Notes: a model not told the origin generated them from the letters alone. A stretch of 40,141 nucleotides of DNA from a virus (IMGVR_UViG_2534682091_000016); one strand, 5' to 3'. Counted from the stretch's first letter, positions 15,826 through 29,563 are shown. Numbers and translations: made by a program.

Positions 15826-16096
15826 GTTTCAGTTCCTCGATCCGGCGTTGTTGTTGTCTCAGCAGTGCGCTGGTCTGTTCTGCTTCGGCGTAGAGCCGCG
15901 CCTGCTCCCGATTGTTGGTTTCAGCCAGAATGGACAGACCGATCAGCTGGCTGTTTTTCTTCGTCAGTTCTTGCGCTTTACTTTTCAGCGCCGCGCGCTG
16001 CGTTTCGATGGTGTGGCTGGCGCTGTTAAGCCGCCACGACTGCCAGCCCAGCGTAACGAGTGCCAGCGCCCCCACTACTGCCAGCGCACGCGTCAT
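15668..16096 (-). CDS. Inner-membrane spanin (LysB/Rz-like)
   Basis: 142 aa with N-terminal TM helix and coiled-coil body, directly after the endolysin gene. Confidence 0.7.
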   Translation of the reverse strand: MTRALAVVGALALVTLGWQSWRLNSASHTIETQRAALKSKAQELTKKNSQLIGLSILAETNNREQARLYAEAEQTSALLRQQQRRIEELKRENEDLRRWADTPLPADIIRLRERPALTGGAAYRQWLSASDAVSAGAGSAAH

Positions 16097-16608
16097 AGTC
16101 CAGCTCCTTTAAGGCACCAGGCCATCTCCCGCGCACGGCGGTTATCCAGCCCCTGATTAAACACACCTTTTACATACACCCAGCGCGGCAACTGTCGGCA
16201 CGCATCCGCCCAGCGCCGCTGATTGAGCAATTTCACCAGCGTGGAACTGCAGGCATTGCCCGTACCCACGTTGAAGGCAAACGACACCGCAGCGTCATAC
16301 ACCTTCTGCGGCGGCTGTTGCTTCACACACCTTTCCAGCGCCCGCTCCACACGCAGCACGTTGGAGATCAGCCCTTCTGCTGCCTGTCGCTCCGTAATGG
16401 TTTTGCCGGGAATGACGCCCGACGTATTACCAATGCCGTCGGTCCAGACACCCGCGCTGCACTGATACGGCTGCAGACGACAACCTTCGTAATCGGCAAT
16501 CAGTTTCAGTCCCTCCACGGAGGTGTGAAGCTGCTGAAAACCCGGCAGCGTGGCAGCAATAGCCAGCACGGTCCCGACAAGGCAGCGTTTAACGATTGAT
16601 GGATTCAT
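16093..16608 (-). CDS. Endolysin, lysozyme type with N-terminal signal-anchor-release segment
   Basis: 171 aa; hydrophobic N-terminus (LVGTVLAIAATL) followed by a lysozyme-like domain (EG...DxxGxxTxGxG); follows the holin gene. Confidence 0.8.
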   Translation of the reverse strand: MNPSIVKRCLVGTVLAIAATLPGFQQLHTSVEGLKLIADYEGCRLQPYQCSAGVWTDGIGNTSGVIPGKTITERQAAEGLISNVLRVERALERCVKQQPPQKVYDAAVSFAFNVGTGNACSSTLVKLLNQRRWADACRQLPRWVYVKGVFNQGLDNRRAREMAWCLKGAGL

Positions 16609-16804
16609 AGTCCTCCCGCGAGATCTGCCCGTCGCGCAGAAGCTGGTAGGCTTTGTGTTTGTAGTACCAGTTGATAGCCAGCATCAGCACACCAATCATC
16701 AGGCCGCCCAGCGTTGAGGCATCTTTGATGGACAAATCGCCCAGCCAGGCCAGCACGACGGCGATGCAATACGTGATAAAGGCGCTGATTCGCTCAAGCG
16801 TCAT
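16589..16804 (-). CDS. Holin (small, two-TM)
   Basis: 71 aa with two hydrophobic helices and charged C-terminus, immediately upstream of the endolysin. Confidence 0.7.
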   Translation of the reverse strand: MTLERISAFITYCIAVVLAWLGDLSIKDASTLGGLMIGVLMLAINWYYKHKAYQLLRDGQISREDYESINR

Positions 16805-16807
16805 AAT

Positions 16808-17011
16808 TCAGTCCCATAGCTGGACGGTCTGCACGGTGGTGGTGGTCGGAATGTCCGGCAGCTCCACCTGCAGCCCGTGAGGTAAAAAGGGGCCGTATTC
16901 GGCAAGCCCCGGATTTGCCTTCAGTACCTGCTCCGTGACACCCTGCGTGCGCCCGTAATGACGCCAGCAAAGCGCGTCCACCGTGTCATACTGATGCGCA
17001 CGCACTTTCAT
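16808..17011 (-). CDS. Tail protein X
   Basis: 67 aa; MKV...DTVDALCWRHYGRT...VLKANPGLAE...LPHGLQVELPD closely resembles P2 gpX as recalled. Confidence 0.85.
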   Translation of the reverse strand: MKVRAHQYDTVDALCWRHYGRTQGVTEQVLKANPGLAEYGPFLPHGLQVELPDIPTTTTVQTVQLWD

Positions 17012-17538
17012 CAGATAAGCTCCACTGTGCAGTGCGGCGCGTCCTGCACCCGGCTGATGGCCCAGCGGGCGTCACGCCACAAATCACCGCTGGCTTCTGC
17101 CAGTTCTTCGCCTCGCTTCACACCGGATGCCGTGGCGTCATAGTCCTGGTATCGTTCGTTGAGCATGGCGCGTGCCCAGCAGTAAACCGCGTTGAAATAG
17201 TGCTGAATGCGCTCACTTTTGCCGTCCAGCTGCTCCGCCGGAACCTCTGCCAGCGAGGCATATCCCAGCATCTGCTGGCGTCTGCGAAACTCATACAACT
17301 CTGCGTTGACCTCCGAAATTGCCGACAGCGCAACCTGCTTTAAACGCGGCTGCGTCACCGTGCCGGCAGTGCGCATGACACTGCGAAACTCCGACAGGTC
17401 CACATCAGGCCAGAACGGCGTGTTTCTGATGATTTCCGCCTGTTCCGGTGCCTGTTCTGGCGCAACAAACTTCATGCTGCTTTCTCCTGAAATAGAGGGC
17501 GGTGGACGGGGTTTTGATGTGGCAGTGCCTTTCGCCAC
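17011..17538 (-). CDS. Head completion protein gpL
   Basis: 175 aa, P2 gpL position between M and X. Confidence 0.75.
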   Translation of the reverse strand: MAKGTATSKPRPPPSISGESSMKFVAPEQAPEQAEIIRNTPFWPDVDLSEFRSVMRTAGTVTQPRLKQVALSAISEVNAELYEFRRRQQMLGYASLAEVPAEQLDGKSERIQHYFNAVYCWARAMLNERYQDYDATASGVKRGEELAEASGDLWRDARWAISRVQDAPHCTVELI

Positions 17539-17570
17539 CCCGTGCCGCCCGTGCGCGGGGGCACGTTCTG

Positions 17571-18221
17571 TCAGCGGCTGTCATTGCGCAGTCTGCGCTC
17601 CAGCTGCTGTTTGTCTTTTTTCACGCCACAGCGGGGATCGAGCTGTAACGCATGGTTGAGATGATTAAGGGCGGAAGCCGGGTTGCTTTCACTCAGGACA
17701 GCGCCAATCGCTTTATGCAGACGCGCCCGTGACTGGTCCGGCATATCCAGACCGTCTGTCAGCTCCAGCGTCTGCAGCAACAGATCGGCATCAAAGCCGG
17801 TGGCGGCAAGCATTGCGCTCTGCGCCGCGTCTGCCATTTCCTCTGCCAGCACGGTCTGCACATTGCGATTACCCAGCGGCATCACCCAGCCATGACGCAG
17901 GGCATGACGCCCGATCTCCAGCGCCCCGGCATAATCTCCGGCATCAATGCGCCACAGCATCACGTACATCAGCACGTCATCCTGTTGAGCGCCTCCGGCA
18001 GTCAGGACCCCCTCTGCCCAGGCGACGTATTTCGGCAGCAGCTCCCCCTTGATTTCCGCTTTTTTGACCGTGGACTGAACGCCCTTGAGACGGCGGCGGT
18101 CTTCCGCCAGTTGCAGCAGCATCAGGTCATAGCCCGACGCGTGGCGAACACTGCCGCCCTCGCGGGCGGCCTGTTCAGCCTGAACGCGCAGGCGATGCTG
18201 CCGTGCGGGACTCAGGCTCAT
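17571..18221 (-). CDS. Terminase small (endonuclease) subunit gpM
   Basis: 216 aa, P2 gpM position after the capsid gene. Confidence 0.75.
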   Translation of the reverse strand: MSLSPARQHRLRVQAEQAAREGGSVRHASGYDLMLLQLAEDRRRLKGVQSTVKKAEIKGELLPKYVAWAEGVLTAGGAQQDDVLMYVMLWRIDAGDYAGALEIGRHALRHGWVMPLGNRNVQTVLAEEMADAAQSAMLAATGFDADLLLQTLELTDGLDMPDQSRARLHKAIGAVLSESNPASALNHLNHALQLDPRCGVKKDKQQLERRLRNDSR

Positions 18222-18224
18222 GGA

Positions 18225-19283
18225 TTACGCTCCGGTTTCTGCTGCGGCGGCGCTGAAGTCGCCAATCTGGATGTTTTCCACCAGTGCGGCGCAGCGGTAG
18301 TCCTCAACCACATAGGCTTCGTTAACGGATTCAAAGTTTTCAATCCGGTCACGTTTCGGGTTGTCGATAACTGAACGGCGGCGAGTGTCTTCCTGCCAGT
18401 AGATGGACAGGTTATCCAGACGGGTGATCAGCAGCGCATTCGGCGGGAAGAACGGCGCACGCACGGCCTGCAGGCCACCCATGCGTTTCTGGCTGATGAT
18501 CATATCTGCAGCCAGTTTTTCACTGTTCTCCTGCTCTTTGTTGACCAGCGGGAAATACTTGTCAGACAACAGTTCACGACCGCAAATCACCACCAGATCG
18601 TCATCGTCCTGGTAAACCACGTCGATAAGCTCATTAACGGCATCCATCACCACGGCGTCCAGGTTGGCATATTCGCCACCTTTACCGACTTTCACCGCGC
18701 CCGGTGTGGTTTCACCGCCCGTGGTGGTGCTGCCCATGACGTGATCCGGTGCATCCTCACGGATTTTCTGTAGCCAGCCTTTATTCACATCCTGCAGCAG
18801 CGGGTTTTCGCTGCGGTTGGAGGTTTTCGCACGCTTCACGCCGTTAAAGCCGATCATGATGCGGTCCAGTGCCTGACGTTTCACGATGGCGTCACGGATA
18901 CGCACCTGGAAATCCTGAAACTTCGCCCACAGGTCCAGCTTCGCGTAGGTCAGCACCGTGTCAAAGTTGGTCTGCTCGCATTTATATTCCACATCGACCA
19001 TCAGCGTCGGATCGACAGGCTCACGCTCTTTTGCGGTGGTATCAGTGGTTCCGGCAATGGTGCTGCCAACACCCAGCCCCAGCAACTGACCAGACTGCTC
19101 AGTCACTGGCGTGACGTTAATCAGCGTCAGGAATGCGGCGGATTGCTGGATCTGGTCTTCCAGCGTCTGCTGCACAGACGGCTCTACAGTAAACTTGCTG
19201 GACAGTTCTTCAACTGCCACACCGTTCAGACGCGCCAGCTGCTGCAGGTAAGCGTTAAAAGCAAAGCGGGTATTCTTCTTCAT
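18225..19283 (-). CDS. Major capsid protein gpN
   Basis: 352 aa, P2 gpN position between scaffold and M. Confidence 0.85.
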   Translation of the reverse strand: MKKNTRFAFNAYLQQLARLNGVAVEELSSKFTVEPSVQQTLEDQIQQSAAFLTLINVTPVTEQSGQLLGLGVGSTIAGTTDTTAKEREPVDPTLMVDVEYKCEQTNFDTVLTYAKLDLWAKFQDFQVRIRDAIVKRQALDRIMIGFNGVKRAKTSNRSENPLLQDVNKGWLQKIREDAPDHVMGSTTTGGETTPGAVKVGKGGEYANLDAVVMDAVNELIDVVYQDDDDLVVICGRELLSDKYFPLVNKEQENSEKLAADMIISQKRMGGLQAVRAPFFPPNALLITRLDNLSIYWQEDTRRRSVIDNPKRDRIENFESVNEAYVVEDYRCAALVENIQIGDFSAAAAETGA

Positions 19284-19299
19284 CAGGTTTTGTGCTCCA

Positions 19300-20133
19300 T
19301 CAGCAATTGGTCAGAGTGTCAGCGGGGGCGTTACCGCCTGTTGCACGCTGGCGGTAGTCCTGGCGGCTGTCTTCATGGCTCAGCTTGTCCACCAGTTCGT
19401 TAAAGGCGGTCTGCTGTGCCTGCAGAACAGTCTCCAGCTCAGACAGGCGTTCTTCCTGCTCAGACAGGGATTTTTCGGTGCGCGCACTCAGGTTCTGCTG
19501 CTCAGTGGCAACCAGTTCCACGGCCTTATGCACATCAGAGAACCGGGCGTCATCGGACTGCTCTTTTTTGGTGAACAGCGCCGTGACGCGGGAAAACAGG
19601 GACGGTTTGTCATCCTGGATTTCTTCCAGTTCGATCACCGTTTCCTCTGCAGCAGTAAAAAGATTGGCGGGATTCTGCTTGCGGTTTGCCAGCGGGTTAT
19701 GGGCTGCACTGGCGCTGAATGTCAGCATTTCCGTACCCAGACTGGCAGGGTCATCAGTGGCAGCCAGGCCGACCAGGTAGGCTTTGCCCGTATCAGCGAA
19801 CTTCGGGCTGACTTCCATAGAGGTGAATAATTTCTGGCCTTTTTTCACCAGCTCCACCAGGGACTCCGTTGGCTCAACGTCGGCATACAGTGCCATCTTG
19901 CCCGCCAGCGGACCTTCCGTGATTTCTTCAGCAAACAGCGCCGTCACCTTGCCGTAGCGGTTAAAGGTGCTGTCCGGCAGATAAGACTTGATGTGCTCAA
20001 GGTTAATCAGCGCGGTATACACCGCCGGGTTGTAGCTGGCTGCCATCTGTTCCAGCCATTCACGCTGGATTTCGCGTCCGTCGGTGGTGGCACCTTCCAC
20101 CCCGATGCGAAAACGCTTTGCTTTCACTGTCAT
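19300..20133 (-). CDS. Capsid scaffolding protein gpO
   Basis: 277 aa with charged coiled-coil C-terminus, divergent from P-Q. Confidence 0.8.
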   Translation of the reverse strand: MTVKAKRFRIGVEGATTDGREIQREWLEQMAASYNPAVYTALINLEHIKSYLPDSTFNRYGKVTALFAEEITEGPLAGKMALYADVEPTESLVELVKKGQKLFTSMEVSPKFADTGKAYLVGLAATDDPASLGTEMLTFSASAAHNPLANRKQNPANLFTAAEETVIELEEIQDDKPSLFSRVTALFTKKEQSDDARFSDVHKAVELVATEQQNLSARTEKSLSEQEERLSELETVLQAQQTAFNELVDKLSHEDSRQDYRQRATGGNAPADTLTNC

Positions 20134-20211
20134 GAGCCGTGCTCCGTTAGAAAAAACTTACTGGAGCCTTATGGTTGCGGTGATGGGGGCAGGGAAACAA
20201 TGCGCGGTATT

Positions 20212-20229
20212 TGTACCGACAACCACACA
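20212..20229 (+). promoter_or_regulatory. Putative Ogr-type activator site (TGT-N12-ACA) in the divergent O/P late promoter region
   Basis: TGTACCGACAACCACACA about 47-64 nt upstream of the P start codon, in the O-P intergenic region. Confidence 0.5.
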
Positions 20230-20275
20230 AACCGCAGGCGGGGAAAGCCTTCATTCAAGGCTGTAGGTTTGTGCC

Positions 20276-22042
20276 ATGAACACCACACTGACACCCGCAG
20301 ATCTCGATCCCCGTCGGCAGGCCATGCTGCTGTACTTTCAGGGATACCGCGTAGCCCGCATTGCTGAAATGCTGGGCGAGAAAGTTGCAACCGTTCACAG
20401 CTGGAAAAAACGCGACAAGTGGGGGGACTATGGGCCGCTGGATCAGATGCAGCTCACCACCGCCGCACGCTACTGCCAGCTCATTATGAAGGAGCACAAA
20501 GAAGGGAAAGATTTCAAAGAGATTGACCTGCTGGCGCGCCAGTCGGAACGCCACGCGCGGATCGGCAAGTTTAACAATGGCGGCAACGAAGCCGACTTAA
20601 ACCCTAACGTCGCCAACCGCAACAAAGGCCCGCGCCGTCAGCCGGAAAAGAATGTTTTCACCGATGAGCAGATTGAGAAGCTGGAAGAAATCTTCCATTC
20701 CTCCATGTTCAACTACCAGCGCCACTGGTGGGAAGCCGGAAAAACCAACCGCATCCGCAACCTGCTGAAGTCACGCCAGATCGGCGCGACCTTTTACTTT
20801 GCCCGTGAAGCCCTGATTGACGCTCTGCTTACCGGACGTAACCAGATTTTCCTTTCCGCCAGCAAGGCACAGGCCCACGTCTTTAAGCAGTACATCATCG
20901 ACTTCGCCAAAGAAGTGGAAGTGGAGCTGAAAGGCGATCCGATGGTGCTTCCCAACGGGGCCACACTGTATTTCCTCGGCACCAATGCCCGCACGGCCCA
21001 GAGTTACCACGGCAACCTGTATCTGGATGAATATTTCTGGATACCGAAATTCCAGGAGCTGCGCAAAGTGGCTTCCGGTATGGCTATTCACAAAAAATGG
21101 CGACAAACCTATTTTTCCACGCCATCCAGCCTGACACACAGTGCTTATCCGTTCTGGTCCGGTGCGCTATTCAACCGTGGGCGCAATAAAGCCGACAAGG
21201 TGGACATCGACCTGTCCCACAGCAATCTGGCTCCAGGCCTGCTGTGTGCAGACGGGCAATACCGCCAGATAGTCACCGTGGAAGATGCGGTGCGCGGCGG
21301 CTGTAACCTGTTCGACCTTGACCAGTTGCGCATGGAATACAGCCCGGACGAATACCAGAACCTGCTGATGTGTGAATTCGTGGACGATCTCGCGTCCGTG
21401 TTCCCGCTCAGCGAGCTGCAGGCGTGCATGGTGGACAGCTGGGAAGTCTGGACCGACTTTCATGCACTGGCCCTGCGCCCGTTTGGCTGGCGCGAAGTGT
21501 GGATCGGTTATGACCCGGCAAAAGGTACGCAAAACGGCGACAGCGCCGGGTGCGTGGTGGTGGCACCGCCAGCCGTGCCGGGCGGTAAGTTCCGCATTCT
21601 TGAGCGTCACCAGTGGCGCGGGATGGACTTCCGCGCCCAGGCTGACGCCATCAAAAAACTGACCGAACAGTACAACGTGACATACATCGGCATCGACTCA
21701 ACTGGCGTCGGCCACGGGGTTTACGAGAACGTGAAAGCGTTTTTTCCAGCCGTCCGGGAGTTTGTCTACAACCCCAACGTTAAAAACGCCCTGGTACTCA
21801 AGGCCTACGACATTATCAGCCACCGCCGTCTGGAGTTTGACGCCGGGCACACCGACATTGCGCAGTCATTCATGGCAATCCGTCGCGCCACCACCGCCAG
21901 CGGCAACCGCCCGACCTATGAAGCCAGCCGCAGCGAAGAAGCCAGCCACGCCGATCTGGCTTGGGCAACGATGCACGCATTGTTTAACGAACCGCTGCAG
22001 GGCGAATCCGCCAATACCAGCAATATTGTGGAGATTTTTTGA
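20276..22042 (+). CDS. Terminase large (ATPase) subunit gpP
   Basis: 588 aa, divergent from O and followed by the portal gene with a 4-nt overlap, as in P2. Confidence 0.88.
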   Translation: MNTTLTPADLDPRRQAMLLYFQGYRVARIAEMLGEKVATVHSWKKRDKWGDYGPLDQMQLTTAARYCQLIMKEHKEGKDFKEIDLLARQSERHARIGKFNNGGNEADLNPNVANRNKGPRRQPEKNVFTDEQIEKLEEIFHSSMFNYQRHWWEAGKTNRIRNLLKSRQIGATFYFAREALIDALLTGRNQIFLSASKAQAHVFKQYIIDFAKEVEVELKGDPMVLPNGATLYFLGTNARTAQSYHGNLYLDEYFWIPKFQELRKVASGMAIHKKWRQTYFSTPSSLTHSAYPFWSGALFNRGRNKADKVDIDLSHSNLAPGLLCADGQYRQIVTVEDAVRGGCNLFDLDQLRMEYSPDEYQNLLMCEFVDDLASVFPLSELQACMVDSWEVWTDFHALALRPFGWREVWIGYDPAKGTQNGDSAGCVVVAPPAVPGGKFRILERHQWRGMDFRAQADAIKKLTEQYNVTYIGIDSTGVGHGVYENVKAFFPAVREFVYNPNVKNALVLKAYDIISHRRLEFDAGHTDIAQSFMAIRRATTASGNRPTYEASRSEEASHADLAWATMHALFNEPLQGESANTSNIVEIF

Positions 22043-23073
22043 TGGGAAAGAGTAAGAAGAACCGCGCTGCGTCACAGAACCAGACCCAGCATAAAAGCCA
22101 GACTTCAGCCGAAGCATTCAGCTTTGGCGATCCCATTCCTGTACTGGACCGCCGCGAACTGCTGGACTATGTGGAATGCGTACAGACAGATCGTTGGTAT
22201 GAGCCGCCAGTGAGTTTCGACGGGCTGGCGCGCACCTTTCGCGCCGCCGTGCATCACAGCTCACCGATTGCAGTAAAGTGCAACATTCTGACCAGCACCT
22301 ACATCCCTCACCCGCTGCTCAGCCAGCAGGCTTTTTCACGTTTTGTGCAGGACTATCTGGTATTTGGTAACGCCTACCTGGAGAAACGCACGAACCGCTT
22401 CGGTGAAGTTATCGCCCTTGAACCGGCCCTAGCAAAATACACCCGACGCGGGTTAGACCTGGATACCTACTGGTTTGTGCAATACGGCATGACCACGCAG
22501 CCGTATCAGTTCACGAAAGGCAGTATCTTTCATCTGATGGAACCGGACATCAACCAGGAGATCTACGGCCTGCCCGGTTATCTTTCTGCCATTCCATCCG
22601 CCCTGCTCAACGAGTCCGCCACGCTGTTCCGTCGAAAGGATTACATTAACGGCAGTCATGCTGGCTTCATCATGTACATGACCGATGCCGCGCAGAACCA
22701 GGAGGATGTGAACAACCTCCGCAACGCGATGAAAAGCGCCAAAGGTCCAGGCAATTTCCGCAACCTGTTTATGTACTCCCCCAATGGCAAAAAGGATGGT
22801 ATTCAGATCATCCCACTGTCAGAGGTAGCGGCAAAAGATGAGTTTCTGAACATCAAAAACGTGAGCCGGGATGACATGATGGCTGCCCACCGCGTGCCGC
22901 CTCAGATGATGGGGATTATGCCTAGCAATGTTGGGGGGTTTGGTGATGTGGAAAAAGCAAGCAAAGTGTTTGTTAGAAATGAATTAATCCCATTGCAAAG
23001 AAGGATTCAAGAACTTAACGAATGGCTTAACATAGAAGTTATTATCTTTTCTCCATATAATTTATCCAATTGA
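22039..23073 (+). CDS. Portal protein gpQ
   Basis: 344 aa (P2 gpQ length); last roughly 40 codons are markedly AT-rich compared with the rest of the gene. Confidence 0.85.
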   Translation: MMGKSKKNRAASQNQTQHKSQTSAEAFSFGDPIPVLDRRELLDYVECVQTDRWYEPPVSFDGLARTFRAAVHHSSPIAVKCNILTSTYIPHPLLSQQAFSRFVQDYLVFGNAYLEKRTNRFGEVIALEPALAKYTRRGLDLDTYWFVQYGMTTQPYQFTKGSIFHLMEPDINQEIYGLPGYLSAIPSALLNESATLFRRKDYINGSHAGFIMYMTDAAQNQEDVNNLRNAMKSAKGPGNFRNLFMYSPNGKKDGIQIIPLSEVAAKDEFLNIKNVSRDDMMAAHRVPPQMMGIMPSNVGGFGDVEKASKVFVRNELIPLQRRIQELNEWLNIEVIIFSPYNLSN

Positions 23074-23080
23074 ATTTAAT

Positions 23081-23097
23081 GGGTAGTAAAACTACCC
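23081..23097. terminator. Bidirectional hairpin between portal and DprA-like genes
   Basis: GGGTAG-taaaa-CTACCC perfect stem 8 nt after the Q stop and 2 nt before the convergent DprA-like stop. Confidence 0.5.
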
Positions 23098-23098
23098 A

Positions 23099-24061
23099 CT
23101 AAATCAGAAAGTGACTCATATTAGATCTATAAATATCAGAATTTATCTTAATTTTGCTTATTGACTCAGATATTACATTCATCAGTGAATCATAGTCTTG
23201 ACTAGTGCGCAAGGGATTAGCCAATTCATTATCAACAAGTTGTTGAGTTCCTTCGCAATTAAGTCCCAGTGGATTATCAGCCTTATGCGGTACAACAGCA
23301 AAAATAGGTCTTGCCGCTTTAATAGCAAAATCCGCCTGCGTCATTGTCCCACTATTTTTTGCTGCTTCGATTAGTATCGAAACTGCTGATAAACCTACCT
23401 GGATTCTGTTGCGTTGCACAAATGACTGCTTGAATGCAGGCCTCCCTACAGGATACTCAGAAATCCAAGCCCCACCGTTAGATAAAATTTCATTTGCTAA
23501 TCTAGCATTTTGTTTAGGCTTAGCGCTCTCTAAACCATGAGCTAATACAGCAATTGTTTTAGCACCTGCCTTAAGAGCTGCCTTGTGTGCATTTGTATCA
23601 GTACCAATAGCTAGGCCGCTTACAATCACCACACCTCTTTCACAGATTTTCTTGGTAATTCTCTTCGTAATTTCTCCCCCTGCCATAGAAACTTCACGAG
23701 AACCAACAATTGCAACTCCTGGCATCTCACTAAGAATATTTACGTCCCCCTTCAAATATAACATTGCTGGGGGATTTGGCGTAATTGCTAAACAAATAGG
23801 GTATTTAGCATCTCCAAAAGGAATTGGAACAATCCCCAATGACAAATGCTTGCTCAAATAGTCTTCAGCATTATGCAATGACGCTATAGAAAAGGCGGAT
23901 TTTAAAATCCCGGCTGAATTAACACACTCAACCAATTCATATTCATCGGAAATAATATGGAATGGAATATCGTTAAATAATTTAAGCAACCCTTGTTCTG
24001 ATGCAAGTCTATCAACCTGTACCGATAGACCTAACAATATTTTGAATTGGGAAGGGTGCAT
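23099..24061 (-). CDS. DprA/Smf-like Rossmann-fold protein (accessory, candidate defence component)
   Basis: Core (GVVIVSGLAIGTDTNAHKAALKAGAKTIAVLAHGL...ISEYP...FVQRNRIQVGLS...IEAAKNSGT) aligns by eye with E. coli Smf/DprA. Start set at the Met with a GAGGAG Shine-Dalgarno, 4 nt after the PRTase stop. AT-rich codon usage. Confidence 0.7.
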   Translation of the reverse strand: MHPSQFKILLGLSVQVDRLASEQGLLKLFNDIPFHIISDEYELVECVNSAGILKSAFSIASLHNAEDYLSKHLSLGIVPIPFGDAKYPICLAITPNPPAMLYLKGDVNILSEMPGVAIVGSREVSMAGGEITKRITKKICERGVVIVSGLAIGTDTNAHKAALKAGAKTIAVLAHGLESAKPKQNARLANEILSNGGAWISEYPVGRPAFKQSFVQRNRIQVGLSAVSILIEAAKNSGTMTQADFAIKAARPIFAVVPHKADNPLGLNCEGTQQLVDNELANPLRTSQDYDSLMNVISESISKIKINSDIYRSNMSHFLI

Positions 24062-24065
24062 TATT

Positions 24066-24635
24066 TCACTCCTCATAATTAGCTGTTTCTAGTAACGCCA
24101 GTGGCAATATTGTCTTTGCGCCTGCATATCTTAACAGATAATAGCACGCCGTCATACTCCCCCCAGTTGTAGTAACATCATCAATAAGGAGAATAACCTT
24201 ATCAGCCACATTGGATGTAACTCCGATTGTTGACATATGATGTTCGACAGAACGATCTCCGCCCCCCTTATGAGCACTCACTACTGTTGTTTTTCTCTGT
24301 AATGATTGGTTATATACAGCATTAGGAAATTTTTTCGCAATATCTTGCGCTATTTTTATTAAAGCTTGAGATACTTTTCCCTCAGCATGAGAAGGAACAA
24401 TTGTTATCTCAAAGGGCACGTCGGTAAAAGCAACCCTACCAATCACATAGCTTTGGAGGCTAGAAGTTAAAAGTTGGGTAAAAATATTAACAGCCTTTGC
24501 ATACCCGGAATTTGAAGCGTCCTTCAAATCCATCATTGCCTTTGAAAGTCTATCCCCGGAACGAGGATTTCGCTCTCCTCGATATCGCCAAGGATGATAT
24601 GTACCGCAAGAGTAAATTTTGATTGGCCCCATCAT
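24066..24635 (-). CDS. Phosphoribosyltransferase-domain protein (ComF/PRTase-like; accessory, candidate defence component)
   Basis: 189 aa with the PRPP-binding signature VILLIDDVTTTGGS; co-oriented and near-abutting with the DprA-like gene. Confidence 0.7.
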   Translation of the reverse strand: MMGPIKIYSCGTYHPWRYRGERNPRSGDRLSKAMMDLKDASNSGYAKAVNIFTQLLTSSLQSYVIGRVAFTDVPFEITIVPSHAEGKVSQALIKIAQDIAKKFPNAVYNQSLQRKTTVVSAHKGGGDRSVEHHMSTIGVTSNVADKVILLIDDVTTTGGSMTACYYLLRYAGAKTILPLALLETANYEE

Positions 24636-24762
24636 TTTTCTGCGCCTTAAGAGTAGATATATCCATATTAAATGGATACTTACATCATTTACAACCCAAA
24701 AAATGACACCAAGTTATCACTAATGACTTAGGTTCAAATGCCAAACTAACTCTCTGCGCGCG

Positions 24763-24781
24763 CTCGTATCCCCGCCACGCC
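24763..24781 (-). other. Candidate cos site (19-nt cohesive-end sequence)
   Basis: Minus strand reads GGCGTGGCGGGGATACGAG; the first 13 nt match the P2/186 cohesive ends as recalled from memory (GGCGAGGCGGGGAAAGCAC / GGCGTGGCGGGGAAAGCAT). Confidence 0.45.
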
Positions 24782-24830
24782 TGCCCGCTTTATGTAGTGG
24801 TTTTCATGCAGGTGCATGATCTACGCAAAA

Positions 24831-24853
24831 GCCCGCCAGTTCTGGCGGGCTTT
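24831..24853. terminator. GC-rich hairpin (terminator-like) near the cos-like site
   Basis: GCCCGCCAG-ttc-TGGCGGGC with flanking A-run and T-run, so could terminate in either direction. Confidence 0.45.
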
Positions 24854-25123
24854 AGCAAAAACGATCCTCAAACGATCATGCAATCTCATGCAGCATAGAC
24901 ATGCACAGACGAGTAAAGCGAATCGGACTTTACGCAAGGTGAACTCCTCAGCGGGCATAATCAGTATGTCGGAAGATCTCTAAAAATGAATAATTCGGTT
25001 AACAGGTATGCTTACAAAAGCATATATTTGATTAAAAATCATGTAAGGGGGAGGATCTCAAACTGAATCGCCACGGGTTTTACAAATTTCGATAGTCTCT
25101 CTAACGTTTCGGCTGAGGTCAAA

Positions 25124-25549
25124 ATGAAAAGCTTTTACGTATTAATTTTAATTCTGGTTGCAAGCTTTGTTAGCGTCCCAGTTCAGGCGGTAACAGCTAA
25201 AAACTATGAGAAAGGAACTAAAGCTCAACAGAAATCAATATCTTACCTTTCATGTGCATTCTATGGCAGTAGCACACAATTAGATCCTAGCTACACGGAG
25301 CAAGTACCTACAGCCGATATCAAGATATTACAGAAAGCAGCTTACCACGCTTACAACGATGCGCTCTCATACTTTGGTTATGAGGAACCAGATCACGAAC
25401 AACGCATAATTGATTATGCTGAATTTGTGGCGTCGCAAGAAGCTGTGTTATGGGATAAACCGGGAATGAATGGAAAGCAGGTAACACTAATTGCTCGTTC
25501 TCTCTACAATGAGAGTAACTGTAACTTGTTACTGGACTCAATTAAGTAG
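25124..25549 (+). CDS. Hypothetical secreted protein (signal peptide)
   Basis: 141 aa; N-terminal signal peptide (MKSFYVLILILVASFVSVPVQA); lone plus-strand gene between cos and the SOS module. Confidence 0.55.
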   Translation: MKSFYVLILILVASFVSVPVQAVTAKNYEKGTKAQQKSISYLSCAFYGSSTQLDPSYTEQVPTADIKILQKAAYHAYNDALSYFGYEEPDHEQRIIDYAEFVASQEAVLWDKPGMNGKQVTLIARSLYNESNCNLLLDSIK

Positions 25550-25708
25550 GAAAAAGATGGTATTTTGCCCGTAGTTTCAACCTTAATCTCCGAACCTGTC
25601 GCAGAACGGGCGTTCACTCATCAAATAAACGCCACACCTAACGCCTCACTGTACTCGTTGTTCAACCTTGCTGACGCCAGAAGCAATTTCAGACGCCAGC
25701 AACGTTTC

Positions 25709-25942
25709 TTAATGCAGCCAGCTGTCGTCTTCCCACACCTTCTGCATAATTTTCATCACTTGTTTTCTTTCTTCGTCCAGTTGCAGTCCGGTCAGTTCCA
25801 CACCGTTAGAGCTACCTTTACGGATACGGATTACCGTTTTGGGATACAGGGGGCGCAGATTGCGGTAAAGCTCGGATTCAAGGGCGTCCAGGGTAGACTG
25901 GCTAATCTTCTGCTCTTTATCGATCATTATTTCAATGCGCAT
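25709..25942 (-). CDS. DinI-family protein
   Basis: MRIEIMIDK...LDALESEL...VIRIRKGSSNGVELTG...KIMQKVWEDDSW resembles E. coli DinI; start chosen at the Met with a GAGGTG Shine-Dalgarno rather than the longest ORF. Confidence 0.75.
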   Translation of the reverse strand: MRIEIMIDKEQKISQSTLDALESELYRNLRPLYPKTVIRIRKGSSNGVELTGLQLDEERKQVMKIMQKVWEDDSWLH

Positions 25943-25952
25943 AAAAGTCACC

Positions 25953-26141
25953 TCAGCTGATGACATCCATTGAGCGGTTGTATTCGTGGGTTCTGATTTT
26001 TGCCATGAGTTCATCAGTCAATTCAGAAACCCACTGCAGAGCCAGCCCCTTCTCTTCATCACTACACTCACTAGCCGCTACAAGCTTAAGAAAAAAATCA
26101 ATGCGCTGGAGCTTCAAAGACTCCAAAAAATAGTCCTGCAT
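25953..26141 (-). CDS. Small protein, first gene of LexA-box operon (possible Tum-like antirepressor N-terminal part)
   Basis: 62 aa from the Met with an AGGAGG Shine-Dalgarno; 44 nt downstream of a perfect LexA box; stops 10 nt before the DinI-like start. Confidence 0.5.
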   Translation of the reverse strand: MQDYFLESLKLQRIDFFLKLVAASECSDEEKGLALQWVSELTDELMAKIRTHEYNRSMDVIS

Positions 26142-26294: not shown

Positions 26295-28709
26295 TTAATA
26301 CAGGTTCCGCCACTGATCATCTTCCTGCAAACGCTGGTTCCGATAGAAGATACGCAGGCCTGCTCCTGACGGAATACTGCCTCCGCGAAGGAGTAAATCG
26401 ACCTCTTTCTCGCTGCCATCAAATCCTCTGGACTTCAGCTCATACACGAGCTGCAGTCGCTGATGGTCTGTAATTCGCTGTTTGTAGTCTTTACGCCGTT
26501 TCGGTTTCACCAGGCGTAACCTTGCTGCCAGTTCCCGGCGCTCTTTTTTGCTCATACTGTGCAGGTAATCGTGCAACTCCTTGTCATCCATGCGGGTAAT
26601 GTCCGTCCTGGTATCCCCATCAGCTGATTTATCTTTCCCTTGTTGGTTCAAATTTTCAGCAAGGGGACAGTTATTGCCACGAGTCCAAGGGGCGCAAGCG
26701 CCCTGGTCGGCTGCCGCCTCCTGAACGTCAACGGCTTTACGAACCATTTTCCACTTCACTGCATGAGTGCAGATCTTGCCCTCTGCAATGGGTGACCAGA
26801 TGCCATAAATACGAATACCGTGATCGCCATAGGCGGTCGGCTCTTCGTTGATTTCATAAGCGGTTCTGATGAGGTGATATTTACGGGGAACCAGTACGCC
26901 GCCCTGCTTCATGATGTAGGTGGCAAAGCAACCAGCATCAGCTGCAGCCAGAATGGCATCAAGGCGCGGGTTATCCAGTACCGGCGCACCTGCTTTTTTG
27001 TCACCCTGTTGCCTTGCCGCCTGACCAGCCAGCAATCGCAGTTCACGGTAAGCCTGACGCCCCGGAATGCCAAAGAAGCGGAATTGCTGAACACGATGCA
27101 GAGACGCCCAGGCATTAACGTATTCAGCGTTATTACGCAGAGATTTACCCGTTTCCTTGCTGATCTCGCCAGCCAGACCACGCCCGTCAATGTTCTTACT
27201 GATATATTTCGCGATGTAGCTTGTCGGCGTTCCTTTGCGCGGGTTAATCAACTCAGACTTAAAGCGCGGCCCAGTGTTATTGCCCAGCTCCTCGCGGTCT
27301 TCACGGATGGCAAACTTACGCAGTAATGCAGTGATGGCGCGGCGATCTTTTTTGCGCATAAAACACAACAGGTGCCAGTGAACTGTACCGTCATGATGCG
27401 GCTCAGCCACCCGCACGCCATACCAGCGCAATCCGGCTTTGTGCATCGCCTTACGAAATGCAGCAAACATGCCGACCAGATAGTCGCTGCTTTGTCTTAC
27501 CGTCGAGTTTGTCCAGGTCGGGTTGGGTCTGCCGTTATTGAGCGTGGAATGGAAACGCGACGGACAGGTGATAGTGTAGAAAACGGCGCAGTCACCGCGC
27601 ATTTCCGCGATAAGCTCCAGACCTTTAACACAGGCCATCATCTCATTGCGGCGATGCGCCGGGTTGCTGCTGCTGGCGTTTACCACATCTTCCATATCCA
27701 GCGTGTCGCCGTCTTCGTTCACCAGTTCATGAGAACGGAAAAACTCCAGCGACTTACGGCGCTGCTCACGTTTATGCATCACGGCTTCATAGCTGACATA
27801 GGGGGATGCTTTTTTGCTGACCAGGCAGACAGCACGCAACTGCTCTTCCCGCCATTCGCAACGCATCTTCCATAATTTCCGATACCACCAGTCGGCACAC
27901 AACATACGCGCCAGCGAACCCGGAATGAGTTCATAGGGCACGGGTTTACGGCGGTTTCTTTTCCGACGGAGTTGCTCAAACGCAGGCGGAATAACATCCA
28001 GACGCAGGGTTTCCGCTGCCACCTTTTCCCATGTTTTGCGGATTTCTTCTGGCTTAACGTCATCGGTGGCATACAAATCACCACAAGCGGCATCAAGGCA
28101 CATGCTCATATGCGCAGCGACAAGGGGGGACAGGCGCTTCACCTGATCCTGACTCATTTCAGGCAGGATAAGCAGGCCATCCAGCCCTTCATGGCTTGCC
28201 ATAAAGCGAAAAGAAGTGGATAGCTGACAGTCGCGGACATGCTCCAGTCGTTCCAGACATGGCTTAATCGTCTCACGCAAATAGCGGGAATAAGCCTTTG
28301 GCCTGCCCAGGCTGCTGAAATATTCAATACGTTGCATCAGCGGCTTGCTGATATGGGAAGGCTGGGCGTTGACGTCAGCCAGAATGACCATGTCCGGATT
28401 AAAACGCTGCTGCTCATGCGCCAGCTTTGCCCGGCTAATGAGCTTATCCTGCTCCATTTCGCGCTGGACAGGATCACGGGATTCATTAAAGAAATAACGC
28501 TCCCAGACCTGATCACTCAGTGCCTCGCGGCGCAGTTGTTCCTGCTCGTTATCGGCAGCGTACAGAGTGATCAGGTTTGAAAGTGCAGAAACCGGCGCAA
28601 CTTCCGCCGGGTCCAGATAAGGGTTAATGGCCTTTTTTGGGCTGTTCCATGAGAATGCTGCGGCGACCTCGTTAAAGCCGCTGCAGTTGTTCATATCAGC
28701 ATGGCTCAT
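26295..28709 (-). CDS. Replication initiation endonuclease gpA (rolling-circle Rep, HUH family)
   Basis: About 800 aa with HUH motif (VHWHLL) and Tyr motif ([12 protein letters not shown]); start placed at the ATG overlapping the dam stop (ATGA); longest ORF runs to 28736. Confidence 0.85.
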
Positions 28710-29563
28710 GCACGCACTCCGTACACGGCGGAACAATCCACGCCACGCGAAGGATCAAATCCTATCCAGCAGCGCGGCCCGGCAACAGCAATGATTTCTG
28801 TTGCAGATTTACTCTCACCAGCTGCCACGCCGATGCTGCGTTTTGCCTTGATGTAGTGGTGAGTAAAATTGCGATACAGCGAACGGATCAGGGATGTGTC
28901 ACTGTTAGAAATAATGACCGGATATCCTTCTGATGACCGATGTTCAAGAACGGATGCCAGGTGATACTGGTCATCTTCAGTGAAACCATCAGTGTGATAG
29001 CCGGAAAACGTACCGTCATAAGGCGGATCGCAATACACCACATCCCCCGCGTGCAACATCGCCAGCGTTTCATCGAAGCTGGCGCAGATAAACGTTGCCC
29101 GCTGGGCTTTTACTGCAAATGCACGAATTTCTTTTTCAGGAAAATACGGATTTTTATAATTACCGTAGGGAATGTTGAAATGCCCGCTCTTGTTATAGCG
29201 ACATAAACCACGGTAACCGTGACGATTGAGATACAGGAAATATATCGCTTTCATGAAATCAGTAATTTCAGTTGAGTAATTAAACTCCTGCCTTATGTTG
29301 TAATAATCCATCTCCCTGTTTGCGTTCTCAAATAAAACTCTGGCGCGAGATATAAACGATTCACAATCAGCGGCAACCTTTTTATAGAGGTTGATTAAAT
29401 CAGGATTAATATCCGCAACCAGATAGCTGGGATAATCCGTCTCCATCATCACAGCACAGGAACCCGCGAAAGGTTCAACCAGTCGCGGGCCAGCAGGAAG
29501 ATGTTTTTTCAGTTCGGACATTATGGCAGTTTTATTTCCCGCCCATTTCAGGATGGTGCTCAT
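28706..29563 (-). CDS. dam: DNA adenine methyltransferase (Dam family)
   Basis: N-terminus ILKWAGNK...[10 protein letters not shown] and DPPY motif (VVYCDPPY); start at the ATG with a GGAGGTG Shine-Dalgarno, overlapping the upstream stop. Confidence 0.85.

Follow-up and report, generated by a model that had tools for sequence, protein, structure and literature searches.

The AT-rich end of a P2-like portal gene as the probable left end of a swappable cargo module between Q and cos

The gpQ-gpA hotspot and the locus under study

Between the genes gpQ and gpA of P2-like phages, close to the cohesive-end site (cos), lies a hotspot whose cargo is rapidly swapped; the hotspot, the swapping and one of the cargoes, a DprA-like protein paired with a phosphoribosyltransferase (DprA-PRTase), have all been published (Rousset et al. 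2022, PMC9122126; Moura de Sousa et al. 2026, PMC13586616; Egorov et al. 2024, bioRxiv 10.1101/2024.10.15.618418). Rousset et al. cloned DprA-PRTase from the gpA-gpQ hotspot and reported protection against T7 and lambda (PMC9122126), and by analogy with that system the allele described here may be protective against phages as well. As to how cargo is exchanged, Rousset et al. speculate on cos ends together with one homologous event (PMC9122126), and the hotspot papers leave the exchange mechanism open. Here we analyse a viral DNA of 40,141 nucleotides (nt), IMGVR_UViG_2534682091_000016, which as a whole we call the window. It holds a P2-like (Peduoviridae) prophage, reversed in orientation relative to the P2 map, in which a DprA/PRTase cassette follows the portal gene Q; the locus sits between gpQ and gpA, and gene order agrees with that of P2 and 186. 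Our subject is the last part of Q and the hairpin behind it, positions 22951-23097.

Our analysis indicates, with a probability that we put at about 0.8, that 22951-23097 is the left end of a swappable module, 22951-24756, lying in the slot between Q and cos. The module contains the last 40 portal codons, a hairpin, a ShosTA-type DprA/PRTase operon and an AT-rich leader. The features on which the argument depends are these:

22042-23073, plus strand: portal gene Q (Pfam Phage_portal, E = 2e-16).
22042-22950, plus strand: conserved core of Q, codons 1-303, the putative left homology arm for cassette exchange (guanine-plus-cytosine (GC) fraction at third codon positions, GC3, 0.65; low diversity).
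22906-22950, plus strand: putative last usable homology, encoding MMGIMPSNVGGFGDV, directly before the module edge (mostly low-degeneracy codons, near-zero diversity).
22951-23073, plus strand: AT-rich portal C-terminal tail, 40 codons and the stop (GC3 0.25, saturated third positions).
23081-23097, no strand assigned: hairpin GGGTAGT-aaa-ACTACCC between the convergent stops of Q and dprA (from its fold energy).
23099-24076, minus strand: dprA-like gene, ShosA type (Pfam DNA_processg_A, E = 8e-60; PADLOC ShosA, E = 8.5e-70).
24066-24635, minus strand: phosphoribosyltransferase gene, ShosT type, the operon's first gene (Pfam Pribosyltran; PADLOC ShosT, E = 2.7e-18).
24636-24756, minus strand: AT-rich leader of the cassette operon, the right end of the variable module (column diversity about 0.7).
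24757-24906, no strand assigned: conserved cos block, dividing slot 1 from slot 2 (column diversity near 0).

Linkage of the portal tail to its cargo

The original prediction held that Q switches abruptly near 22950 to AT-rich codons like those of the DprA/PRTase cassette, and both halves of that claim stand. Codons 1-303 of Q have a GC content of 0.536 and a GC3 of 0.650, the last 40 codons (22951-23070) a GC content of 0.292 and a GC3 of 0.250 (Fisher test on GC3, p = 1.7e-6), and a sliding 150-nt GC profile steps at the same place. The 123-nt tail lies 6.4 standard deviations (sd) under the mean of 123-nt windows in the structural genes at 16000-22950 (mean 0.571, sd 0.044, minimum 0.447). 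The tail has 2 AGA, 1 AGG and 1 ATA, codons that the first 303 lack entirely, all 17 arginines there being CGN; glutamine is written as 15 CAG and 1 CAA in the core and as 2 CAA in the tail, and glutamate, a mixture of GAA and GAG in the core, is GAA at all 5 positions in the tail. The tail GC3 of 0.25 matches the values for dprA (0.29) and for the PRTase gene (0.32). The end coordinate that had been predicted for the feature, 23097, is the end of the hairpin.

The left edge of the variable part was located in a set of related portal loci, 160 in all, drawn in equal halves of 80 from species-representative genomes and from IMG/VR and supplemented with isolated phages including P2 and 186; the sampled loci are related to one another, and duplicates by tail sequence were removed for the analyses. 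A subset of 57 close, non-redundant relatives shows a third-position diversity of 0.1-0.4 as far as 22950; from 22951 on it is saturated, at 0.57-0.66. The residues VFVRNEL.PLQ remain invariant for 14 codons more, though their synonymous sites are saturated. When pairs with unrelated downstream DNA are compared, 1003 of 1570 change-points (64%) fall at 22950-22964, with a median of 22956. On these alignments about 140 related P2-like loci share 22950-22964 as the left edge of their hypervariable module. In the 45 nt before the edge, which encode the stretch MMGIMPxNVGGFGDV, per-codon diversity is near zero at most positions; the codons after the edge (A, S, V, R, L, P) are highly degenerate and saturated between modules. 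We infer that 22950 marks the rightmost position at which a crossover remains possible. A few portals end oddly: that of locus L079 is truncated at ...QQRIREVNI* and that of L046 at ...SWLGE*, and those of L039 and L126 are longer by about 30 and about 12 residues, which may reflect imprecise junctions or decaying prophages.

What lies beyond the edge goes with the cargo. The DNA directly behind Q falls into 81 cargo clusters in 142 loci, and every cluster has a tail of its own. Where the cargoes of two loci are unrelated, nucleotide identity between their tails is never above 0.778 (mean 0.587), and such pairs include loci with 98.7% identity over the 900 nt of Q before the tail. Conversely, 57 of the 59 pairs whose tails are at least 0.9 identical have the same cargo. 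Where cargo is homologous and diverged, the tail is diverged in proportion: for DprA, tails 77-78% identical go with cargo at 78%, and tails 61-65% identical with cargo at 68-70%. The exact tail of the window has 20 further copies (14 complete E. coli genomes, five IMG/VR contigs and one metagenome contig), all 20 of which sit with DprA/PRTase, a cargo found in only 3 of the first 167 loci. The Q terminus had been predicted to be foreign, in frame and moving together with the cassette, and that part of the prediction stands in the sense that tail and core differ in ancestry, as the 20 copies and the recombinant locus L187 (see below) indicate.

Nearly all close relatives are AT-rich at the portal end whatever their cargo, as would be found if an AT-rich tail were ancestral to this portal clade and independent of cargo, and the original prediction had named relatives of that kind as what could overturn it. 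However, relatives with unrelated cargo, AT-rich as they are, never have the same tail: their sequences differ to saturation (identity at most 0.78, mean 0.59) with cores up to 0.99 identical. Between unrelated modules tail identity stays flat, at about 0.57 for nucleotides and about 0.5 for amino acids, over core identities of 0.6-0.99, with no correlation between the two (rho = -0.005). Moreover, the identical tail occurs only with the DprA/PRTase cassette, and relatives whose slot is empty have tails of normal composition. We therefore consider a merely ancestral tail extremely unlikely.

The composition of empty and occupied slots deserves a closer description. Eleven non-redundant loci, P2 and 186 among them, have an empty slot, with 155-256 nt from the Q stop to cos and a mean tail GC of 0.53. 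In 100 loci with an occupied slot (525-3506 nt) the mean GC is 0.33 for the tail, 0.37 for the cargo and 0.54 for the core, and the difference in tail GC between empty and occupied slots, 0.53 vs 0.33, has p = 1.6e-7. AT-rich tails make up 100 of the 111 non-redundant tails, and all 100 belong to occupied slots. The GC content of the tail follows that of the cargo (r = 0.68, p = 7e-15) but not that of the core; its values form a continuum from about 0.2 to 0.6 and rise with the amino-acid identity of the tail to the consensus of the empty-slot tails, KRLQELNDWLGEEVIRFEPYT (rho = 0.76).

How did the tail become AT-rich? The original prediction saw in it cargo exchange between hosts of different GC content, so that a crossover in Q would have brought in tail and cassette together from a P2-like phage living in a low-GC host, the AT-richness being the composition of the donor. 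The tail GC3 of 0.25 is indeed close to that of the cargo, 0.29-0.32, tail GC follows cargo GC, and amino acids whose codons are AT-rich are commoner in the AT-rich tails (FYMINK 0.39 vs 0.29). Against this, no relative from a low-GC host turned up: the nearest tails and cassette homologues, those of DprA included, are all from P2-like phages of Enterobacterales, and a tblastn search of isolated phages with the 44-residue C-terminus for a low-GC-host donor gave best matches that were all enterobacterial, none of them identical. Import would also need about 80 independent events breaking at the same codon, and tail GC is not bimodal but radiates, from about 0.6 to 0.2, from an enterobacterial empty-slot consensus. 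With empty-slot tails of normal GC, a continuum of tail GC and relatives all from Enterobacterales, exchange between hosts differing in GC was not borne out, and we regard import from such a donor as unlikely, though conceivable as an ancient event. We infer instead, as the favoured explanation, an AT-biased decay in situ through long co-residence with a poorly recombining, AT-rich compartment.

The tail nevertheless appears to do its work. Within module lineages its ratio of nonsynonymous to synonymous substitution (dN/dS) is 0.09, compared with 0.065 for the core, and positions E, N, W, I, F, Y and L are conserved at 79-100% across modules; this pattern marks the tail as a working portal end under purifying selection. 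The Pfam portal match reaches residue 329, and a sequence search of the PDB with the portal protein gave no match. Since the tail is the sole hypervariable part of a protein otherwise 93-99% conserved, and its linkage to cargo is nearly absolute, one might suppose diversifying selection on the portal C-terminus, as escape from portal-sensing immunity or as matching to the neighbouring defence, with the linkage itself being selected. But the dN/dS is core-like and purifying, and the saturation of synonymous sites, including those of the invariant VFVRNEL.PLQ codons, indicates separate ancestry rather than fast protein evolution. Empty-slot tails, moreover, evolve in step with the core (cluster L014/L030/L033), and the cargoes are mechanistically unrelated (retron, HipA-like, DUF4145, ShosTA). 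We judge selection of this kind very improbable.

Crossovers, cos and the proposed exchange

Recent exchanges can be read from mosaic loci. Over 22927-23577 locus L187 shows not one mismatch with the window, and across the cassette only five, and its Q core (22072-22926) is 8.5% diverged from that of the window. That core is 99.4% identical to the core of locus L143, which has another tail and a HipA-like cargo. The junction in L187 lies at about 22913-22932, just upstream of the composition switch, and to judge from these alignments L187, L143 and the window are a reciprocal mosaic. Other modules behave likewise, one module recurring on diverged backbones and one backbone carrying different modules; their junctions lie between 22626 and 22959, many of them at 22932-22959.

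In E. coli a tract at most 0.4% diverged runs from about 20400 or about 21900 to cos in a surrounding backbone that is 2.5% diverged, which suggests a recent sweep of the cassette across backbones, in which 1-2.5 kb of adjoining packaging genes went along. The tract spans part of the terminase gene P, all of Q and the cassette, and the late genes at 18000-20275 are about 2.5% diverged. The five E. coli loci compared share essentially one Q/P allele, four of the five having the identical portal WP_000520376.1. One E. coli prophage (L172, strain LH10-b-1, NZ_CP100530.1) is degraded, with its tape-measure and gpM genes annotated as partial pseudogenes, yet its portal tail persists and its DprA/PRTase cassette is intact (0.36% divergence).

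Junctions scattered in this way are, on such comparative grounds, the signature of general homologous recombination that uses Q and P as its left arm. The idea that 22951 is a recombination breakpoint has accordingly to be divided: the position holds as the fixed edge of the non-homologous module, but it is not the usual crossover point, crossovers being scattered through Q and P.

A dedicated mechanism would be either a site-specific integration that restores the 3' end of the gene or a diversity-generating retroelement (DGR) that rewrites the end of Q. The sharp left edge common to so many loci would suit it, as would the incoming replacement end, which resembles the 3' ends borne by attP sites. 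Yet the cassette consists of DprA and PRTase only, with no integrase, transposase or reverse transcriptase, and the recent junctions lie dispersed across more than 2 kb of homologous flanking sequence. A search of the window for a second tail copy and for att-like or template repeats found none. We thus rejected site-specific 3'-end-restoring insertion, given a module without a recombinase and a window without a second copy of the tail, and we rejected a DGR, for which there is neither a reverse transcriptase nor a template repeat and whose adenine-directed mutagenesis would be unlike the saturated synonymous sites seen here. To a dedicated mechanism of either type we give next to no chance.

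At the other end of the module the edge is equally sharp: column diversity is about 0.7, the random level, up to 24755 and about 0 from 24757, which sets the edge at 24756/24757. Conservation resumes 6 nt before a predicted 19-nt cohesive end at 24763-24781 (reverse complement GGCGTGGCGGGGATACGAG), whose position was assigned by homology to P2 and 186. The cos block, found in 125-135 related loci, is homologous to the annotated cosL of P2 and 186 and to the annotated cos of phage Cartapus. The earlier view of a cargo cassette bounded inside Q holds, with the correction that its right edge is cos and that the interval between cos and Q is a slot of its own.

As the loci compare, the gpQ-gpA hotspot is two slots parted by a 150-bp cos block and assorting independently. 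Unrelated slot-2 content is found in 25 of 39 pairs with the same slot 1, and an E. coli ST131 prophage (L169) carries the DprA/PRTase cassette without the slot-2 gene. In the Q-to-cos slot, DprA/PRTase would be at the extreme left end of the packaged chromosome. In two IMG/VR contigs from more distant P2-like phages, L181 (3300048923_000150) and L182 (3300034069_000610), homologues of DprA/PRTase at about 70% amino-acid identity lie instead in the cos-to-gpA slot, so that the same defence system occurs in both slots; L182 has an empty slot 1 and a portal tail of normal composition (GC 0.56).

On the comparative evidence the module passes between P2-like genomes by recombination. The left crossover can fall anywhere in conserved Q or P, but probably no further right than the MMGIMPxNVGGFGDV-coding stretch that ends at about 22950, and the limit on the right is cos. 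Because modules beyond 22950 have diverged to saturation, no crossover there would part the tail from its cargo, and each cargo therefore has its own portal C-terminus. The tail would share the fate of an AT-rich, poorly recombining accessory compartment: with recombination suppressed beside heterologous cargo, an essential portal gene could drift towards AT and diverge at its 3' end while staying functional, the decay starting from a common ancestral tail, KRLQELNDWLGEEVIRFEPY, with no need of a low-GC host. For the right-hand event there are two candidates, homologous recombination in the 150-bp cos block and a joining of cohesive ends between co-infecting genomes.

The latter possibility leads to a more specific, and tentative, suggestion that we would not call probable, namely that slot-1 cassettes are exchanged as a terminal fragment from the left end of the linear virion chromosome. 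In this case the fragment would consist, in order, of cohesive end, 6 nt, cargo and portal tail; cohesive-end joining of co-infecting or co-induced P2-like genomes would supply the site-specific event at cos, and one crossover in Q/P would complete the swap. If true, such terminal-fragment exchange gives a concrete mechanism for the turnover of the cos-proximal hotspot in P2 and, by analogy, in P4.

Several points weigh against the module as we have drawn it. The whole argument is comparative. The pair counts are not independent events, the loci being related despite dereplication. The common sharp left edge could stem from one ancient, inherited event and not from a limit of homology. For this cassette a crossover at the edge is documented only in L187, because the E. 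coli copies sit on a single Q allele. The position of the cohesive end rests on homology to P2 and 186, and AT decay in situ is not separated from import from an AT-rich donor, since both predict that AT-rich tails are more divergent.

The neighbouring features complete the picture of the locus:

20276-22042, plus strand: large terminase gene P (open reading frame (ORF), Pfam scan and RefSeq annotation of near-identical E. coli prophages).
24907-25640, plus strand: second variable slot, from cos to the DinI/gpA side (common to only 7 loci).
26295-28736, minus strand: gpA-type replication endonuclease gene, an ORF of 813 amino acids (RefSeq annotation of near-identical E. coli prophages).

The DprA-like and PRTase genes are adjacent and co-oriented, and RefSeq relatives label the homologue of 23099-24076 DprA. 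Taken at its longest, the dprA ORF begins at 24076 and shares 11 nt with the PRTase ORF; in RefSeq relatives DprA starts 15 nt further in (the equivalent of 24061), which gives a 4-nt gap. The hairpin has a 7-bp stem, a fold energy of -14.1 kcal/mol and z = -3.2, and lies between the Q stop (23071-23073) and the dprA stop (23099-23101); it is probably a bidirectional terminator or transcript-end structure. A consensus terminator scan did not call the hairpin at 23081-23097, because no T-run follows it, and a consensus promoter scan of the leader at 24636-24756 called none. Slot 2 holds a 141-residue ORF (25124-25549, plus strand) whose N-terminus resembles a signal peptide (MKSFYVLILILVASFVSVPVQA) and which has no match in Pfam or PADLOC. 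The 131-residue ORF at 25565-25960 (plus strand) is probably no gene; RefSeq relatives have two minus-strand genes annotated here instead, one DinI-like (about 25709-25942) and one hypothetical (about 25953-26141).

Comparison with known systems

The gpQ-gpA hotspot of P2-like phages is a major anti-phage reservoir, and both ends of one of its units are now placed at nucleotide resolution. To judge from the comparison, an essential structural gene has a cargo-specific end, and the left-hand event is ordinary homologous recombination. For practical purposes, hotspot-mining pipelines that cut at gene borders lose 123 nt per module, the portal tail could serve as a short barcode predicting slot-1 cargo, and defined homology arms now allow cassette-exchange experiments to be designed. 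More generally, the tail is a natural case for how suppressed recombination beside heterologous DNA shapes base composition.

The closest described system is the P2-like cos-proximal hotspot itself, which is alike in locus, phage family, cargo type and rapid swapping among near-identical core genomes. As published, however, it is an interval between two genes, whereas here it appears as two independent slots split by the 150-bp cos block, and slot 1 starts 123 nt inside the portal ORF, unlike the published gene-to-gene definition. In a limited literature search we found none of these points, the portal-internal start, the end 6 nt from the cos cut and the two slots, stated in the hotspot papers. 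With the ShosTA or DprA-PRTase system the locus shares the pairing, in one operon, of a ShosT-like PRTase gene with a ShosA-like gene for a DprA-like protein; the genes are unremarkable, and it is the junction that differs.

A wider frame is the modular evolution of temperate phages in the sense of Hendrix and Juhala, with its mosaic junctions and morons. The likeness lies in an AT-rich block within a structural operon of normal GC, in the reshuffling of blocks and backbones and in exchange via flanking homology, and the composition fits that of a moron (GC 0.39 vs 0.57), with a stable hairpin after dprA that has no T-run. Unlike mosaics and morons as usually described, the junction here lies inside an essential structural gene and not at a gene or domain border, and the segment is a homologous, constrained replacement of a gene end whose edge is common to about 80 modules.

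Replacement of a gene end is familiar from e14 and phage 21, prophages that integrate in icd and carry a substitute 3' end; tRNA genes are targets as well. These are alike in supplying an in-frame, synonymously diverged gene end. Unlike them, the module described here has no integrase, no att repeats and no duplicated gene end, and its crossovers are scattered. Set beside these systems, our finding is a new detail of a known hotspot and not a new kind of system.

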